This document shows, in pieces, positions 4,239-60,648 of a DNA stretch of 64,000 nt. Position numbers and translations under genes: made by a program. The stretch is taken from assembly GCA_009993005.1 (NCBI GenBank), contig JAACUH010000067.1:6848-70847 (forward strand), given 5' to 3'. Under the pieces are notes generated by a model. It saw only the letters and a list, made by a program, of their open reading frames with translations, ran no database searches and was not told where the DNA came from. How positions within the stretch are numbered: position 1 is the stretch's first letter; each line of letters begins with the position of its first letter. The DNA comes from Rhodobacterales bacterium. GTDB taxonomy: Bacteria > Pseudomonadota > Alphaproteobacteria > Rhodobacterales > Rhodobacteraceae.

Positions 4239-4265
4239 GGCGCCGGTCCTTTCGGTGAGGGGGGA

Positions 4266-4326
4266 GGGGGCGCTGCCCCCGCGCGCGTGCCGCGCGCCCC
4301 CCGGGATATTTGGGGCAAGATGAAGC
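4266..4326 (+). repeat. short structured repeat, copy 1 (GGGGGC-GCT-GCCCCC hairpin, GCGCGCG-TGC-CGCGCGC hairpin, CCCCCGGGATATTTGGGGCAAGATGAAGC box)
   Basis: Read directly from the sequence. It lies in the 95-nt spacer between the PfkB stop (4334) and the oxidoreductase start (4238). Related copies are at 21506, 41961, 59021(-) and 60382. Confidence 0.8.
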
Positions 4327-4333
4327 GGGGGGG

Positions 4334-5257
4334 TCAGCCCGGCGGCGGGGTCGGAGGGCTGTTGCCCTCCATCGGGCCGCGCACGGTCACGGCGCGGGCG
4401 CCGGCGGCATTGGCCTCGGACAGAGCGCGTGCAAAGGGCGTGCCGAGGGCGGTGAGGGCGATGTAGGTGGCGCAAAAGCAGTCGCCCGCGCCGGTGGGGT
4501 CGATCACGGTGGCGGGATCGGCCGGCAGGGAAATGACCGCGCGGCGGTCAGTGCCGATGCAGCCCGCGTCGCCACGCTTGAGCACGACGCTGTGCGCGTG
4601 GGGAAGGGCGGCGGCGAGGGCGGCGAAATCGGCGCCGGGCCAGAGTGCTGCGGCGTCTGCATCGGAGGGCAGGACGTGGTGCGACAGGGCGATGAGCGCG
4701 CGCAGGGTCTCGATGTAGCCTGCGTCGCGCAGGAGTTCGGGCCTGATGTTCGGGTCGATGGACAGAATGACGCCCTGCGGCACAAGTGAGTCGCAAACCG
4801 TGCGGGCGGTGGCGCGCAGGGCGGGGTCGCCCAGGGTCGAGCCGGAGATATGCAGATGGGTGACGCCGGCGGCGGCGAAACCGGCGACGATGGTCGCGGC
4901 GTCGGGCAGCATCGCGGCGGCGCTGTGGCCGATGTTGAACACGAAAGCGCGGCTGCCGTCGGAGGCATAGGCGACATGGGCGGTGCCTGTCGGCCTGTCT
5001 GTCACCGCGATCAGCCGGTCATCGACGCCATGCGCGCGCAGCCGGTCGAGGATCACGCGGCCGAAGGGATCGTCACCGACGGCCCCGGCAAAGACCGCCT
5101 GCCCGATGATCTGAGCGGCCTGGTCGATGAAGATGCCGGGCGCGCCGCTGGGAAAGGGGCCGATGTAGGGGGCGGGCCGCGCATGTTGCGTATCGGTGTC
5201 GGTGCAGACGAACTCTACCAGCAGCTCACCCAGCGCTGCGATGATCGGGCGGGACAT
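4334..5257 (-). CDS. PfkB-family carbohydrate kinase
   Basis: ORF 4334..5257 with the C-terminal DPTGAGDCF signature of ribokinase/PfkB kinases. Confidence 0.85.
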   Translation of the reverse strand: MSRPIIAALGELLVEFVCTDTDTQHARPAPYIGPFPSGAPGIFIDQAAQIIGQAVFAGAVGDDPFGRVILDRLRAHGVDDRLIAVTDRPTGTAHVAYASDGSRAFVFNIGHSAAAMLPDAATIVAGFAAAGVTHLHISGSTLGDPALRATARTVCDSLVPQGVILSIDPNIRPELLRDAGYIETLRALIALSHHVLPSDADAAALWPGADFAALAAALPHAHSVVLKRGDAGCIGTDRRAVISLPADPATVIDPTGAGDCFCATYIALTALGTPFARALSEANAAGARAVTVRGPMEGNSPPTPPPG

Positions 5258-11237: not shown

Positions 11238-12702
11238 AAACGCTGTCGGGGCCAGCCGCACCAAGCCATGACAGGAGCGCCGCGACATCCATGGGCATCG
11301 TCGTCCCGACCTCCCGCACCGGGCCCCGCGCCATCGGCCGCGCCCGGGTGGCGAGCGCGATGAGTTCTGGCACATAGTCCATCCCCGGGTGGCCGGGGTC
11401 GCGGGTGGCCACGCGGGCGGCATAGCGCGCGCCGATCTCTTCTGGCGGGGCATGGCACCAGATCTCGGCGATCTCGGTGATGCCGGCCCGCGCGAGGCCG
11501 GCGTCCAGCACCTCGGCCGGCTGGAAACCGAACCAGGCATCCATGATGAAGGTGCCGCCGGACGCGTCGGCGATCAGGTCAAAGATCGCATCATAGGCCG
11601 CGCGGCCCAGCCTGCGGTTCATCGGCCGGTCCACCGGGGCGAGCGTGGTGAGGAACGGGCCCTTGACGGTGTCGAGGGTCAGGCGCGGCCAGCCGGTCGC
11701 CTCGGCCAGCGCGCGTGCCACAGCACTTTTGCCGCTGGCGGGAACGCCGTTTACCATGATCAGCCGCTTGCGCAGGGGCGCGGGCAGCGCGCGCAGGCCG
11801 GCCAGTGCCGCGCCGATGACGCCCGCGTCGTCGCCGAGACGCGCGGCTGCGAGGGGGGCGTCGAACCAGGAATGCTCTGCGGGCACACGGCCGAGCGCGG
11901 CAACCATGGTCGCGCCCGCGCCGCCGCCGATCACCACAATGTCGGGATTGCAGATCGAAATCAGCGAATCGATGGCCGCCCGCAAGGGCCGGGCCCAGGC
12001 GTCGAGGACAGCGCCGGCGGCCGGGTCTTGACGCGCGAGCAGCGCCTCGGCGCGGGTATCGGCCGGCAGGCCGGCCGCGGCGAGATGGGTGGCAAAGGCG
12101 GTGCCGGAGCTCAGGGTCTCGACACAGCCAGTGCGGCCGCAGACACAGGGGCGACCATCAATATCGACCCTGATATGGCCCAACTGGCCTGCAAGGCCGC
12201 GCCCGCGCAGCACCTCACCGCCTGTGATCACAGCACCACCGATGCCCGTGCCGATGGTCAACAACACCGCGTTCGCCATGCCCTTTGCGGCGCCAAAGGC
12301 AGCTTCGGCCAGCAGAGCCATGGTCGCGTCATTCTCGACGGCGACAGGCAGGCCTGCGCCCGCCTCGACCAGCGCCGCAAAAGGCAGCGCGCTGAGGTCC
12401 ACATAGCCGCCCGACAGCACCCTGCGCGCCGCCGCATCGACCTGGCCGGGGATGCCGATACCGATGGCGGCAACCTGAGGCCTGCGCACCCGTTCGATCA
12501 GGTCAAGGCAGCGCCCCAGCACCACCTGCGGGTCGGGGTCGCTCGGCGCATGGGCGCGGGCGAGGATCTGGCCGTCGTCCGCCACGAGGGCCGCGCGCAT
12601 ATGCGTGCCGCCGATGTCTATGCCGATGGCGGGGCCGATGGCGGGGCCGATAGCGGGGCCGATGGCGGGGCCGATAGCGGGGCCGATGGCGGGGCGGGTC
12701 AT
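11236..12702 (-). CDS. ROK-family sugar kinase fused to a C-terminal P-loop (AAA_33/gluconokinase-like) kinase domain
   Basis: ORF 11236..12702. The ROK part has IDIGGT and the zinc motif CVCGRTGCVE. The C-terminal ~170 aa carry Walker A GVPASGKS. The N-terminus carries a (PAIG)x6 repeat. Confidence 0.8.
   Translation of the reverse strand: MTRPAIGPAIGPAIGPAIGPAIGPAIGIDIGGTHMRAALVADDGQILARAHAPSDPDPQVVLGRCLDLIERVRRPQVAAIGIGIPGQVDAAARRVLSGGYVDLSALPFAALVEAGAGLPVAVENDATMALLAEAAFGAAKGMANAVLLTIGTGIGGAVITGGEVLRGRGLAGQLGHIRVDIDGRPCVCGRTGCVETLSSGTAFATHLAAAGLPADTRAEALLARQDPAAGAVLDAWARPLRAAIDSLISICNPDIVVIGGGAGATMVAALGRVPAEHSWFDAPLAAARLGDDAGVIGAALAGLRALPAPLRKRLIMVNGVPASGKSAVARALAEATGWPRLTLDTVKGPFLTTLAPVDRPMNRRLGRAAYDAIFDLIADASGGTFIMDAWFGFQPAEVLDAGLARAGITEIAEIWCHAPPEEIGARYAARVATRDPGHPGMDYVPELIALATRARPMARGPVREVGTTMPMDVAALLSWLGAAGPDSV
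12622..12693 (-). repeat. 12-bp tandem repeat x6 (GCCGATGGCGGG / GCCGATAGCGGG) encoding (PAIG)6
   Basis: Read directly. The repeat is in-frame at the 5' end of the ROK gene, immediately before the IDIGGT ATP-binding motif. Confidence 0.95.
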
Positions 12703-39996: not shown

Positions 39997-40938
39997 GTGC
40001 AGACGCAAGCCGTCATACTGACCGCGCCAGAGCAGCTCGAGCTCGGCACGCTGGGTCTCACCCCGCCTGCGGCGGATGACCTTGTCGTCGCGATCTCGCA
40101 TTCCGGCATTTCCACCGGCACCGAAAAACTGTTCTGGTCGGGCCAGATGCCGCCCTTTCCCGGCATGGGTTATCCGCTTGTCCCCGGTTACGAATCGGCG
40201 GGCGAAGTGGTCGAGGCCGGGGCGGATACCGGGTTTCGCGTGGGCGAGCGGGTCTTTGTGCCCGGCGCGTCCTGCTATGTCGGCGCCTTCGGGCTTTTTG
40301 GCGGGGCTGCGGCCTGTGTCGTGACCAAGGCGTCGCGCGTGACCCGCATCGACGCTGGCCTTGGCGCCGAGGGCGCGCTTCTGGCGCTCGCCGCCACCGC
40401 GCGGCATGCGATGGCGGGGCCGGGCAAGGCCGTGCCGGACCTGATCGTGGGGCATGGCGTGCTGGGCCGGCTGCTGGCGCGGCTGACGATTGCCGCGGGC
40501 GCCCCTGCGCCGACCGTCTGGGACATCAACCCCGACCGCATGACCGGCGCGCAGGGCTATGAGGTGATCGCGCCCGAGGCCGACACGCGCCGCGACTACC
40601 GGTCGATCTATGATGCCTCGGGCCGCGCCGATCTGCTCAACGACCTGATCCCGCGCCTGGCCAGGGGTGGCGAGATCGTGCTGGCGGGGTTCTATACCCA
40701 GCCGCTGAGTTTCGCCTTTCCGCCCGCCTTCATGAAGGAAGCGCGGCTGCGCATCGCGGCGGAATGGGCGCCCGACGACATGGTGGCGACACGCTCGCTG
40801 GTGGAAAGCGGCGCGCTGTCGCTGGGCGGGCTCATCACCCATACCGCCCGCGCGACCGACGCATCCGCCGCCTACAGGACCGCGTTCAGCGACCCGTCCT
40901 GCCTCAAGATGATCCTCGACTGGAAAGGCCGGGCATGA
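39997..40938 (+). CDS. bchC: bacteriochlorophyllide a dehydrogenase (3-hydroxyethyl)
   Basis: ORF 39997..40938 (GTG start with a GAGGGGGA Shine-Dalgarno). It has the MDR/zinc-ADH-like fold pattern and lies upstream of bchXYZ. Confidence 0.92.
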
Positions 40939-41939
40939 CCCTCGATATCCCCAATCTCAAGGACTTCGACCAGCGCCTGCGCGACGAAGCGCATGAAGAG
41001 CCGACGCTCGAGGTGCCGCAGGGCGAGCCCACGAAGCATACCCAGATCATCGCGATCTATGGCAAGGGCGGTATCGGCAAATCCTTTACGCTCGCCAATC
41101 TCAGCCACATGATGGCCGAAATGGGCAAGCGGGTGCTGCTGATCGGCTGCGACCCCAAGTCCGACACCACGAGCCTCCTGTTCGGCGGCAAGGCCTGCCC
41201 GACGATCATCGAAACCTCGAGCCGCAAGAAGCTTGCCGGCGAAGAGGTTGCCATCGGTGACGTATGCTTCAAGCGCGGCGGTGTCTTTGCGATGGAGCTT
41301 GGCGGGCCCGAGGTCGGGCGCGGCTGCGGCGGGCGCGGGATCATCCACGGCTTTGAGCTGCTGGAGAAGCTGGGCTTTCATGACTGGGATTTCGACTATG
41401 TGCTGCTCGATTTTCTGGGCGACGTGGTCTGCGGCGGCTTTGGCCTGCCGATCGCGCGGGACATGGCGCAAAAGGTGATCCTGGTCGGGTCGAACGATCT
41501 GCAATCGCTTTATGTCGCCAACAACGTCTGTTCGGCGGTGGAGTATTTCCGCAAGCTCGGCGGCAATGTCGGCGTGGCGGGGCTCGTGATCAACAAGGAT
41601 GACGGCACCGGCGAGGCGCAGGCCTTTGCCAGGGCTGTCGGTATCCCGGTGCTGGCCGCGATCCCGCAGGACGACGATCTGCGCAAGAAATCCGCCAATT
41701 ACCAGATCGTCGGCACGATGCAGAGCCAATGGGGCCCGATGTTCGTGGGTCTGGCCGAGGCGGTGGGCCTTGCCCCGCCGGTGCGGCCCAAGGCGCTCAA
41801 CCAGGACGGGCTGCTCGCGCTGTTCGATGCCAAGGATACCGGCGGCGACTATCAACTTGTGCCTGCCAGTGACGCCGACATGCGCGGCAAGTTCGCGGTC
41901 GTGCGGGAAAGCCTCGAGGTCATCTATGACGATGCGTGA
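40935..41939 (+). CDS. bchX: chlorophyllide a reductase iron protein subunit X
   Basis: ORF track 40764..41939, trimmed to ATG 40935 (ATGA overlap with bchC). It has the NifH-like P-loop YGKGGIGKS and CGGFG. Confidence 0.95.
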
Positions 41940-41960
41940 TCTCATGGACGGCGCCGGCGC

Positions 41961-42023
41961 GGGGGCTCTGCCCCCCGTCCCCGATGGGGACGTCCCCCGG
42001 GATATTTCGGGCCAAAAGATGGA
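41961..42023 (+). repeat. short structured repeat, copy in bchX/bchY junction
   Basis: The sequence is GGGGGCTCTGCCCCCCG + GTCCCC-GAT-GGGGAC hairpin + GACGTCCCCCGGGATATTTCGGGCCAAAAGATGGA. The 17-nt and 35-nt modules are identical to copy 60382. Confidence 0.85.
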
Positions 42024-43515
42024 TGCGGGTCTGCCTGTGGATGGCATGGGCTGTCATGCCGGGGCGGGTGCGCTGCAGGCGGCGGCGCGGGCGGCGGGCA
42101 AGTCCGAGATCCTGGATCAATATGCGCGGGACTATCCGCAAGGGCCGCATGACCAGCCACAGTCGATGTGCCCGGCCTTTGGGTCCTTGCGTGTGGGTCT
42201 GCGGATGCGGCGGGTGGCAACGGTGCTGTCGGGCTCGGCCTGCTGTGTCTATGGGCTGACCTTTGTCAGCCATTTCTACGGGGCGCGGCGGTCGGTCGGT
42301 TATGTGCCGTTCAACTCCGAGACGCTGGTCACGGGCAAGCTCTTTGAGGATATCCGCGAGGCGGTGCATGATATCGCGGACCCCGCGAATTATGACGCCA
42401 TCGTGGTGACGAACCTCTGTGTGCCGACTGCCTCGGGCGTGCCGCTGCGGCTTTTGCCGGATGAGATCAACGGCGTGCGGATCGTGGGGATCGACGTGCC
42501 GGGCTTTGGCATTCCGACCCATGCCGAGGCCAAGGATGTGCTGGCGGGCGCGATGCTGGCCTATGCGCGCAAGGAAATCATGGCGGGGCCGGTGGCGGCG
42601 CCTGTGGGCGGCAAGTCGGACCGGCCGACCGTGAGCCTTTTGGGCGAGATGTTTCCCGCCGATCCGGTGATGATCGGCGCGATGCTGGCGCCGCTGGGGC
42701 TGGCCGTGGGGCCGGTTGTGCCGGCGCGCGAATGGCGCGAGCTTTATGCCGCGCTTGACTGCGGGGCGGTGGCGGCGATCCATCCGTTCTATACGGCGGC
42801 TGTGCGTGAGTTCGAGGCGGCAGGGCGGCCCGTGGTCGGCTCGGCGCCGGTGGGCCATGACGGCACGGCGGCCTGGCTGGCCGCGATCGGCGACGCGTTC
42901 GGTCTGCCGGCTGACCGCGTCGCGGCAGCGCAGAACGCATTCCTGCCAGCGATCAGGGGCGCGCTGGCGGCGGCGCCGATCAAGGGGACGATCACGCTGT
43001 CGGGCTATGAGGGGTCGGAACTGCTGGTCGCGCGGCTGCTGATCGAGAGTGGCGCGGATGTGCCCTATGTCGGCACCGCCTGTCCGAAAACCCGCTGGTC
43101 CGCCGATGACGCCGCATGGCTCGAGGCGCGCGGCGTCAAGGTCAAGTATCGCGCCAGTCTTCAGGATGACCTGTCGGCGATGGAGGCGATCCGCCCCGAC
43201 CTCGCCATCGGCACGACGCCTGTCGTGCAGAAGGCCAAGGAGATGGGCGTGCCGGGGCTCTATTTCACCAACCTCATCTCTGCCCGGCCGCTGATGGGGC
43301 CGGCGGGGGCGGGTTCGCTCGGCCAGGTGATCAATGCCGCGATTGCGGGCAAGGATCGCATGGACAAGATGAAGGCGTTCTTTGCCGGTGTGGGCGAAGG
43401 CGACACCGCCGGGATCTGGGAGGGCAGCCCCAACCTGCGCCCCGATTTCCGTGCGCAGCATCAGAAGAAGCTCGACAAACTGGCGCGCGCGGCCAAGGCC
43501 GAGGAGATGATCTGA
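42019..43515 (+). CDS. bchY: chlorophyllide a reductase subunit Y
   Basis: Frame of ORF 41599..43515. ATG 42019 ([18 protein letters not shown]...) is the start closest to the conserved BchY N-terminus. In-frame ATGs at 41926, 41932 and 41944 would add a repeat-encoded extension. [17 protein letters not shown] is present. Confidence 0.9.
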
Positions 43516-50062: not shown

Positions 50063-50147
50063 GGCAAAGAGGGTGGCAAAGAGGGTGGCAAAGAGGGTGG
50101 CAAAGAGGGTGGCAAAGAGGGTGGCGGAGGAGGGTGGCGGACGGCGC
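50063..50147. repeat. 12-bp tandem repeat GGCAAAGAGGGT x5 plus two degenerate units
   Basis: Read directly. It fills essentially the whole 87-nt spacer between the dxs stop (50060) and the convergent hypothetical gene stop (50148). Confidence 0.95.
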
Positions 50148-59015: not shown

Positions 59016-59020
59016 CCCCG

Positions 59021-59071
59021 TTCATCTTTTGGCCAGAAATATCCTCGGGGGTCCGGGGGCAGACAGCCCCC
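59021..59071 (-). repeat. short structured repeat, inverted copy in bchN/bchB spacer
   Basis: The reverse complement reads GGGGGC-TGTCT-GCCCCC GGACCCCCGAGGATATTTCTGGCCAAAAGATGAA. It lacks the second hairpin. Confidence 0.8.
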
Positions 59072-59082
59072 GGCGGCCAGCC

Positions 59083-60648
59083 ATGAAGCTCACCGTCTGG
59101 ACATACGAGGGCCCGCCCCATGTCGGCGCCATGCGCGTCGCCACCGCGATGAAGGGGCTGCATTACGTCCTGCACGCGCCGCAGGGCGACACCTATGCCG
59201 ACCTCCTGTTCACCATGATCGAGCGGCGCAACCACCGCCCGCCCGTCACCTACACCACCTTCCAGGCGCGCGACCTCGGCGCCGACACGGCGCTCTTGTT
59301 CAAGGAGGCCTGCCGCGACGCGGTCGAACGCTTCGCCCCGCAGGCGATCATCGTGGGCGCCTCCTGCACGGCGGAACTGATCCAGGACGATCCCGCAGGT
59401 CTGGCCGAAACCATGGGCCTGTCGATCCCGGTGATCCCGCTCGAGCTTCCCTCCTACCAGCGCAAGGAAAACTACGGCGCGGACGAGACCTTCCTGCAGA
59501 TCGTGCGCCACCTTTCGCGCCCGCAGAACCGCACCGCGCGCGTGACCTGCAACATCCTCGGCGCCACCGCGCTGGGGTTCCGCCATCGCGACGATGTCGA
59601 GGAAATCACCGGCCTGCTGTCCGACCTCGGTGTCGAGGTGAATGTGGTGGCGCCGCTCGGGGCCACGCCAGCCGACATCGCCCGCCTGCCCGCGGCGCAT
59701 TTCAATGTGCTCCTTTACCCCGAGACCGCGGAAGCCGCCGCGCGCTGGCTGGAAAAGACCCATGGCCAGCCCTGGACGAAAACCGTCCCGCTCGGCGTCG
59801 GCGCGACCCGCGATTTCATTGCCGAAGTGCAGGCGATCACCGGGCTTGCGGCCACGGCCGATGAAGGCCGCCTGCGCCAGCCCTGGTGGAGCCGGTCGGT
59901 GGACAGCACCTATCTGACCGGCAAGCGGGTGTTCCTCTTTGGCGACGGCACCCATGTCATCGCCGCCGCGCGGATCGCGCGCGACGAGATGGGCTTCGAG
60001 GTCGCGGGGCTGGGCTGCTACAACCGCGAGATGGCGCGGCCGGTGCGGGCCCTGGCCAAGGCGATGGGCCTCGAGGCGCTGATCACCGACGACTACCTGG
60101 AGGTCGAGGCGGCGATTGCCGCTCTTGCCCCGGAGATGATCCTCGGCACCCAGATGGAGCGGCATATCGGCAAGCGGCTGGGCATCCCCTGTGCCGTGAT
60201 CTCTGCTCCGGTGCATGTGCAGGATTTCCCCGCGCGCTACAGCCCGCAGATGGGGTTCGAAGGCGCGAATGTGATCTTTGACACCTGGATCCATCCGCTG
60301 GTGATGGGGCTCGAGGAACATCTGCTGACCATGTTCCGCGACGATTTCGAGTTCCACGACGAGGCGGGTGCGTCGCATCACGGGGGCTCTGCCCCCCGCC
60401 GGCCTGCGGCCGACGTCCCCCGGGATATTTCGGGCCAAAAGATGGACGCGCCGGAGCCTGCGGTCGTGGCCGTTGCGACAGCAGACAATATCGTCTGGCT
60501 GGGCGATGCAGAGCGCGAGTTGAAGAAGATCCCGTTCTTTGTGCGCGGCAAGGCGCGGCGCAATACCGAAAGCTATGCGGCGGCGAAAGGGCTGAGCCAG
60601 ATCAGCATCGACACGCTTTACGAGGCAAAGGCCCATTATGCGCGATAG
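59083..60648 (+). CDS. bchB: light-independent protochlorophyllide reductase subunit B
   Basis: ORF track 58858..60648, trimmed to ATG 59083 ([43 protein letters not shown]). The C-terminal [14 protein letters not shown] domain is in the same frame. Confidence 0.95.
60382..60446 (+). repeat. short structured repeat, copy embedded in-frame in bchB
   Basis: The sequence is GGGGGCTCTGCCCCCCG + CGGCC-TGC-GGCCG hairpin + GACGTCCCCCGGGATATTTCGGGCCAAAAGATGGA. It is translated as ...[23 protein letters not shown]... within the BchB linker. Confidence 0.85.

Follow-up and report, generated by a model that had tools for sequence, protein, structure and literature searches.

The Rickettsia palindromic elements (RPEs; Ogata et al. 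2000) are repeats that lie in frame inside conserved genes (PMC10969869, PMC3184786). Other repeats are found upstream of genes, as with REP2 of Neisseria and the upstream repeats of Borrelia, which provide a promoter and an RBS together with the ATG start (PMC3184786). Here we analyzed a stretch of 64,000 nucleotides from a Rhodobacterales bacterium (contig JAACUH010000067.1 of GCA_009993005.1), referred to below as the window, in which a repeat made of two hairpins and a conserved box lies between the stop codon of bchX and the conserved core of bchY. By analogy, the behavior of this element would be closest to that of the RPEs and to that of a copy of the same repeat in bchB. We hold with moderate confidence that the element is a translated passenger, probably near-neutral, carried in a disordered leader of BchY that is translated from ATG 41926 or ATG 41932.

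The bchX-bchY junction and its repeat family

The window includes a photosynthesis gene cluster of Rhodobacteraceae in which bchC, bchX, bchY and bchZ are consecutive, and a Fer4_NifH domain is called on the identical bchX gene in metagenome contigs. The features of the junction are collected in Table 1. A full copy of the repeat, ~61 nt long and composed of two GC hairpins and the box GGGATATTTCGGGCCAAAAGATG, occupies 41961-42021. It starts 21 nt past the bchX TGA, and its box is an exact match at 41999-42021. An assembly artefact is ruled out, as the junction (41840-42120) is identical in 11 independent metagenome contigs. The original prediction for this locus, made from the letters of the window, had placed the bchX stop at 41939 and ATG 42019 within the end of the repeat box and in the BchY frame, and had described the same frame as open from the ATGs at 41926, 41932 and 41944. 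All of these placements were confirmed: the stop is a TGA, ATG 42019 is the last triplet of the box, and the BchY frame runs open from each of the three upstream ATGs through the element to the core, with the box ATG in the same frame. The prediction also let the repeat fill 41940-42023, which stands for 41961-42021 and needs correction for 41940-41960, where the sequence is not repeat but probably a remnant of the old leader.

Table 1. Features of the bchX-bchY junction, in window coordinates
Feature	Position	Strand	Remarks
bchX CDS	40935..41939	+	from the ORF list and a crude gene model; TGA at 41937-41939; C-terminus ...SLEVIYDDA
GAGG, Shine-Dalgarno-like	41916..41919	+	6 nt before ATG 41926; also within the bchX codons L-E-V
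ATG 41926 and ATG 41932	41926..41934	+	both overlap the bchX end (ATGACGATGCGTGA, 41926-41939)
Putative old-leader remnant (..DLMDGAGA)	41940..41960	+	pre-element; contains ATG 41944, the start in the NCBI record
Hairpin 1, GGGGGC-TCT-GCCCCC	41961..41975	+	-12.4 kcal/mol, z -2.2
Hairpin 2, CGTCCCC-GAT-GGGGACG	41976..41992	+	palindrome variable within the family; -12.5 kcal/mol, z -3.2
C-run and conserved 3' box GGGATATTTCGGGCCAAAAGATG	41993..42021	+	ends with in-frame ATG 42019-42021
Post-element leader, short (DAGLPVDG)	42022..42045	+	continues into invariant D-G-M-G-C-H-A-G
BchY core, conserved	42046..43515	+	Oxidored_nitro domain; stop overlaps the bchZ ATG at 43515

The element had been described as structured, and this is true of each hairpin singly (see the z scores in Table 1). 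The whole 66-nt element is no better folded than shuffled GC-rich sequence (z -0.8; for 121 nt, z -0.06). Its overall folding is unremarkable because any sequence this GC-rich folds well, and because the energy of the whole element is about that of shuffled sequence, only hairpins 1 and 2 count as exceptionally structured. A scan of 41700-42300 detected no sigma-70-like promoter sites. Likewise, a scan for an intrinsic terminator, defined as a GC-rich stem followed by a T-run, detected none; the tail after the stems is GGGATATTTC.

The 23-nt box is present in 111 copies in the 3.40-Mb genome when up to 4 substitutions are allowed, where the chance expectation is 0, and a shorter box variant (TATTTNNGGCAAGATGAA) contributes dozens of further copies. 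The family box has the form GGATATTT-NN-GGCCAAAAGATG with a C-run before it, and the bchY-leader copy fits this form. It also shares with other copies an architecture in which hairpin 1 (GGGGGC-N3-GCCCCC) is followed by a variable palindromic hairpin 2, the loop of which is GAT in the bchY-leader copy versus TGCG in the common form. The boxes of this genome fall into two subfamilies, TATTTNNGGCAAGATGAA (~70 exact-pattern copies) and TATTTNNGGCCAAAAGATG(G/A)A, and the bchY and bchB copies belong to the second. Further copies in the window are located at 4262-4344, 59016-59050 (minus strand) and 60381-60463. The copy in the bchB linker (60382-60446) is in frame, and its box is read in the same frame as in bchY. 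The window also contains 5-6 tandem 12-nt units of GGCAAAGAGGGT at 50063-50137, which are separate from a 12-nt GCCGATGGCGGG array at 12610-12695.

Copies were placed against a crude codon-usage gene model of 3231 genes (91% coding). Intergenic copies with both neighbors lie mostly between convergent genes (49), followed by tandem genes (23 and 24 in the two orientations) and divergent genes (4), and 8 copies, those of bchY and bchB among them, are inside predicted ORFs. Genome-wide, the 5' end of the repeat is usually 0-20 nt past a stop codon, and where an upstream stop is co-oriented the box mostly follows it by 18-60 nt, such that the bchY copy has the usual location. The habit of the repeat is thus REP-like: gene 3' ends are colonized, promoter regions are avoided, and there is no bias relative to the direction of transcription. 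Between convergent genes, several copies also stand tail to tail, 13-23 nt apart (for example C77:11154-11171 and C77:28363-28380). Literature text searches found no description of this repeat, and an Rfam scan of 41800-42200 returned nothing above threshold, the sole match being RAGATH-16 (19.3 bits vs a gathering score of 65.6, E = 0.36). Apparently, this hairpin-plus-box repeat of Rhodobacterales is undescribed.

The element as an insertion in the bchY leader of this and other genera

In a BchY tree, the window and a metagenome-assembled genome (MAG; 98% protein identity) are sister to the genera G006 and G334 (support 100/97). In both sister genera bchY starts at an ATG overlapping the bchX stop, giving BchY proteins that begin MTMPDG..., MTTREG... 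or MTMPDL... and Y-D leaders (MTMPDGPITYDDADAVEVI... in G006 and MTTREGFEVGYDASGQVEVI... in G334) that share the motif x-T-Y-D-x-A-x-x-E-V-I. Their junctions read ATGACGATGCCTGA... and MTTREGFEVGYDASGQVEVIQ..., respectively, and the element is absent from both. Matches to the box pattern number 3 in G006 and 0 in G334 vs 93 in the genome of the window. The distance from the bchX stop to the codons for the invariant GCH is 109 nt in the window vs 94 nt in G006, a gain of 15 nt that keeps the frame. Most of the leader gave way to the element, and the E-V-I half of the Y-D...E-V-I motif was lost with it. Because repeat-free relatives differ from the window in sequence as well as in spacing, the repeat at this junction is a real insertion when the bchY leader is compared with that of the sister genera, and the insertion supposed in the original prediction is borne out. 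Tentatively, MDGAGA (41944-41961) may be homologous to YDDADA of G006, with 12/18 nt matching in the same frame.

The leader into which the element was inserted is widespread. In 98 of 119 related BchY proteins, 30-45 residues precede the core D-G-M/L-G-C-H-A-G, and their first residues follow the pattern M-x-x-E-(V/I)-(T/R)-Y-D-x-A-x-x-x-E-V-I. Across natural BchY the leader ranges from 10 to 51 residues and its sequence is variable too; some proteins have leaders of 10-20 residues with no Y-D motif. In an AlphaFold monomer model, pLDDT is <50 for residues 1-83 (29-41 for residues 1-80), which together with the natural variation in length fits a leader that would be a tolerant disordered tail. 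We found no solved structure of chlorophyllide reductase (COR). We also observed that the N-terminal motif of BchY (x-E-V-T-Y-D-D-A-x-x-A-E-V-I) resembles the BchX C-terminus S-L-E-V-I-Y-D-D-A-stop encoded just upstream (window 41905-41939; also L002, L022 and L035). This likeness could mean that the 3' end of bchX was duplicated, or that the two proteins share a docking peptide.

We compared the junction with MAG contig L101. The bchY core differs at 146 of 1470 positions (~10%), 132 of them third codon positions, and 27% of core third positions differ. Between 41940 and 42018 the differences number 4 in 79 positions, of which 3, including those at 41949 and 41952, are at third positions of the bchY frame. 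By this measure the stretch appears clearly constrained. The third-position bias involves 4 substitutions only (p ~0.11), and a uniformly constrained non-coding element fits it about equally well. The change T41978G would replace Val with Gly and breaks one pair of hairpin 2 with no compensation, which would argue weakly against strong selection on structure.

To place the junction in the family, one genome per genus was surveyed across 401 genera of Rhodobacteraceae, of which 170 have bchY; 151 bchX-bchY junctions were read. An HMM of the box region detected the element in 13 of 140 new junctions, and 16 of the 151 genera have a family member at the junction, 4 inside the leader ORF and 12 in the spacer. 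In the 12 spacer genera the box is 0-25 nt upstream of a normal bchY start with a Y-D leader, and all spacer copies inspected are in the orientation of transcription. The four genera with the element in the leader are that of the window, G243, G319 and G256, and extra records supply two more in-leader junctions, Roseovarius sp. MBR-78 (L045) and a Natronohydrobacter MAG (L055). In each of the six, one open frame runs from the overlap ATG through the element to the core. The overlap ATG and the box triplet are 93, 93, 84, 87, 90 and 87 nt apart, lengths that vary but always in steps of 3 nt. The six in-leader junctions require 5 changes on the BchY tree, at least 4 of which are forced by well-supported branches; by this count the BchY leader took up such an element at least 4 times independently. 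G243 (MTMHDRDVAGGPSAPRPAGPPEDISQPKPEAPAEGGACH) and G319 (MTLEADDRGGPSAPHPSGPPEDISRAKTGCH) offer no in-frame start codon (ATG, GTG or TTG) between the beginning of the element and the invariant Cys, and therefore the element must be translated there.

At the junction, the box variant matches that of the host genome (GGCAAGATGAA in G256, GAAAGATGAA in G103), which fits independent insertions from resident families. A metagenome scan for the box followed by GGNTGYCAYGCNGG within 6-36 nt gave two matches, both unrelated chance matches, and no diverged lineage with the exact configuration, in a collection from which records close to the genome of the window may be missing. Junctions of other genera have features of their own. 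In many genera the bchX-bchY spacer is 150-350 nt long and contains one of two small conserved ORFs, neither of which is in the window: one encodes ...A-R-P-E-Q-I-x-R-L-L-x-D-I... and the other, which starts at or over the bchX stop, encodes (M)-x-D-L-D-A-L-x-x-L-D... (loci L004, L007, L022, L035, L073, L125, L216 and L238; L006, L021, L024, L030, L042, L060, L064, L120, L139 and L143). Weak to moderate matches to the box HMM were found just past the bchY stop (L002:3021-3039, L027:2713-2734, L052:4064-4081, L061:4046-4062 and L079:4014-4042), which suggests that the bchY/bchZ junction is also colonized by the repeat family in other genera.

The start codon of bchY and alternative roles for the element

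Public records of the identical gene give BchY three lengths, 529 aa from ATG 41926 (JGI, ENA), 523 aa from ATG 41944 (NCBI) and 498 aa from ATG 42019 (JGI), because the start codon was chosen differently around the repeat. Among six candidate starts, a Shine-Dalgarno (SD) sequence precedes only ATG 41926 (GAGG, 6-nt spacing); in this genome an SD is found at 36% of predicted starts vs 6% of internal ATGs. The presence of GAGG and of the overlap ATGs proves nothing alone, because the codons of the conserved BchX C-terminus LEVIYDDA dictate both, and both are also present in relatives that start bchY far downstream. In Mameliella (MTMPDLATPAGDGCH), where 22 nt separate the stop from GCH and the Y-D motif is absent, the overlap ATG is the only possible start. 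ATG 42019 is 80 nt past the bchX stop and behind the two hairpins, and the 20 nt before it (GGGATATTTCGGGCCAAAAG) contain no GGAG, GAGG or AGGA that could serve as an RBS within the repeat.

The original choice of the box ATG as the best bchY start is not supported. It has no SD and is distant from the bchX stop, whereas ATG 41926 has GAGG and a stop overlap as in the sister genera, and G243 and G319 lack a start like that in the box. The comparative data, among which the genus survey carries most weight, favor the other option that had been offered, in which the element is translated and extends the BchY N-terminus. We conclude from these comparisons that bchY most likely starts at ATG 41926 or ATG 41932, which would be equivalent to the start of the sister genera. 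The element lies past the stop/start overlap ATGACGATGCGTGA (41926-41939), which is intact, and for a start at 41926 or 41932 the ORF runs ~30-35 nt before it reaches the hairpins. The proposal that a structured element sits at the point of bchX-bchY coupling would hold only if the start were ATG 42019.

The history that we favor is as follows. A resident hairpin-plus-box repeat, which mostly settles just past stop codons, would have given one copy at this site when the ancestral bchY start was the ATG overlapping the bchX stop. Because bchY began at that ATG, an insertion ~20 nt past the bchX stop would have fallen inside the bchY frame, where it would have replaced most of a poorly conserved leader together with the Y-D...E-V-I motif. 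It would have survived because the frame was kept and no stop codon was introduced. Translation from ATG 41926 or ATG 41932 would be coupled to termination of bchX, and the element would be read through as ~20 Pro/Gly/Ala-rich residues of a disordered tail. Family membership, the insertion relative to the sister genera, the continuous frame and the recurrence in other genera are shown by the sequences, whereas we infer the start codon in use and near-neutrality of the element for enzyme function.

Alternatively, bchY may truly begin at the box ATG. The ORF would then have been cut off from its old start, the protein would be the 498-aa form, and the AT-rich box would serve for initiation that is independent of an SD. 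This ATG closes the box in the BchY frame, one JGI annotation calls it, and a 498-aa protein should be viable because natural BchY with 10-20-residue leaders exist. In 4 of the 6 in-leader junctions (window, L045, G256 and L055) the box ends in an in-frame ATG or GTG, and in Natronohydrobacter the box ATG is followed by the Y-D motif at its usual N-terminal distance (MKGEAVYD). The spacing of the element before bchY in the 12 spacer genera, where its purine-rich tail is often in the initiation region, is also in its favor. Against these points stand the missing SD, the distance from the bchX stop and the absence of a start codon at that place in G243 and G319. Further, 6/6 junctions are open, in frame and different in length by multiples of 3, which would be unexplained with an untranslated upstream part. 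Elsewhere in the genome, genes downstream of copies use their own SD and start 10-40 nt past the box. We regard this start as unlikely. We also considered, and rejected, the idea that the box ATG generally donates starts in this genome: ~12 copies are just upstream of co-oriented genes, most of which have their own SD as just described, and the box ATG is in frame with these downstream genes no more often than chance. Initiation might instead be dual, with most ribosomes coupling at 41926 or 41932 and some starting at the box ATG to yield long and short BchY. This would explain why an overlap ATG and the box triplet are both kept in one frame, and 5/5 independent in-leader lineages read the box in the frame of its ATG codon, an observation that also counts for the box start; with two of the three frames open for boxes of the GATGAA type, the chance of this is ~0.06. 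However, the signal is marginal, and the box ATG was lost in G243 and G319 and has no SD in the window. We find dual initiation quite improbable.

It is also conceivable that the element is retained because it regulates the bchCXYZ transcript at the RNA level, with translation incidental and with hairpins that slow ribosomes or serve as a processing or stabilizing site, setting the BchX:BchY ratio. Both hairpins are stable individually, the junction is far less diverged from the MAG than synonymous sites (4/79 nt vs 27%), and the family member is at the junction in 16/151 genera, in transcription orientation wherever inspected. Yet the sister genera and most of the Rhodobacteraceae lack the element, the MAG substitution in hairpin 2 is uncompensated, and folding of the whole element is unexceptional (z -0.8). 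There is also no terminator-like or promoter-like site and no Rfam match in the regions scanned, and tandem copies show no orientation bias genome-wide (23 vs 24). Such a regulator seems very unlikely to us. More broadly, we speculate that the repeat might be a portable module of translation initiation and structure, repeatedly selected at the bchX-bchY junction of the superoperon (16/151 genera), in which the box ATG stays in frame to provide a second, uncoupled start and the hairpins buffer bchY translation from bchX. We consider this quite doubtful; if true, different lineages would set the X:Y stoichiometry of chlorophyllide reductase differently.

Comparison with known repeat systems

A translated passenger in the BchY leader, the reading that we prefer, bears on several matters. 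For annotation, the comparisons supply evidence for choosing among the 529, 523 and 498 aa records of one gene. The element would be the second case in the same cluster of this repeat lying in frame inside an essential pigment-biosynthesis gene, and the series of BchY leaders offers natural material for how non-coding repeats become coding sequence. From the leaders that lack it, the widely conserved Y-D...E-V-I motif of BchY is evidently dispensable in several lineages, which is useful for work on the structure of COR, still unsolved.

We compare the element with described repeats by behavior, and claim no sequence membership in any named family. The family shares with the REP/BIME sequences of gamma-proteobacteria its GC-rich hairpins, a copy number above 100, and positions downstream of genes, especially convergent ones (49/100 here), with some tail-to-tail pairs. 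Unlike them, it also has a conserved AT-rich 3' box, and its hairpin 2 varies in sequence. REPs are also extragenic by definition, and the bchY copy is not. Like the REP2-type repeats, members of this family can be at or immediately upstream of a gene start and carry an ATG, as in the 12 genera where the box is 0-25 nt before the bchY start. However, the box has no SD, the scan found no promoter-like site, and a start at the box ATG is impossible in G243 and G319. The element is therefore outside the REP2-type definition of promoter, RBS and ATG.

The nearest counterpart is the copy in bchB, which shares with the bchY copy the subfamily (GGCCAAAAGATG box), the reading frame of the box and the photosynthesis gene cluster. 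Conserved protein flanks the internal bchB copy on either side, and its translation is not in doubt, whereas the bchY copy is N-terminal and its translation depends on the start. RPEs and the bchY element are both short palindromic interspersed repeats that lie in frame in conserved genes. RPEs are translated and located where the fold tolerates them, as the bchY element would be. In the window and in five other lineages the element is in frame and free of stop codons inside a conserved ORF, as RPEs are. RPEs are 100-150 bp, AT-rich and specific to Rickettsia, whereas the bchY element is ~61 nt, GC-rich, built of hairpins and a box, and drawn from a family that is mostly intergenic. Without claiming any sequence relationship to RPEs, we note that the bchY element, unlike them, is at the extreme 5' end of its gene, which puts the identity of the start codon at issue.
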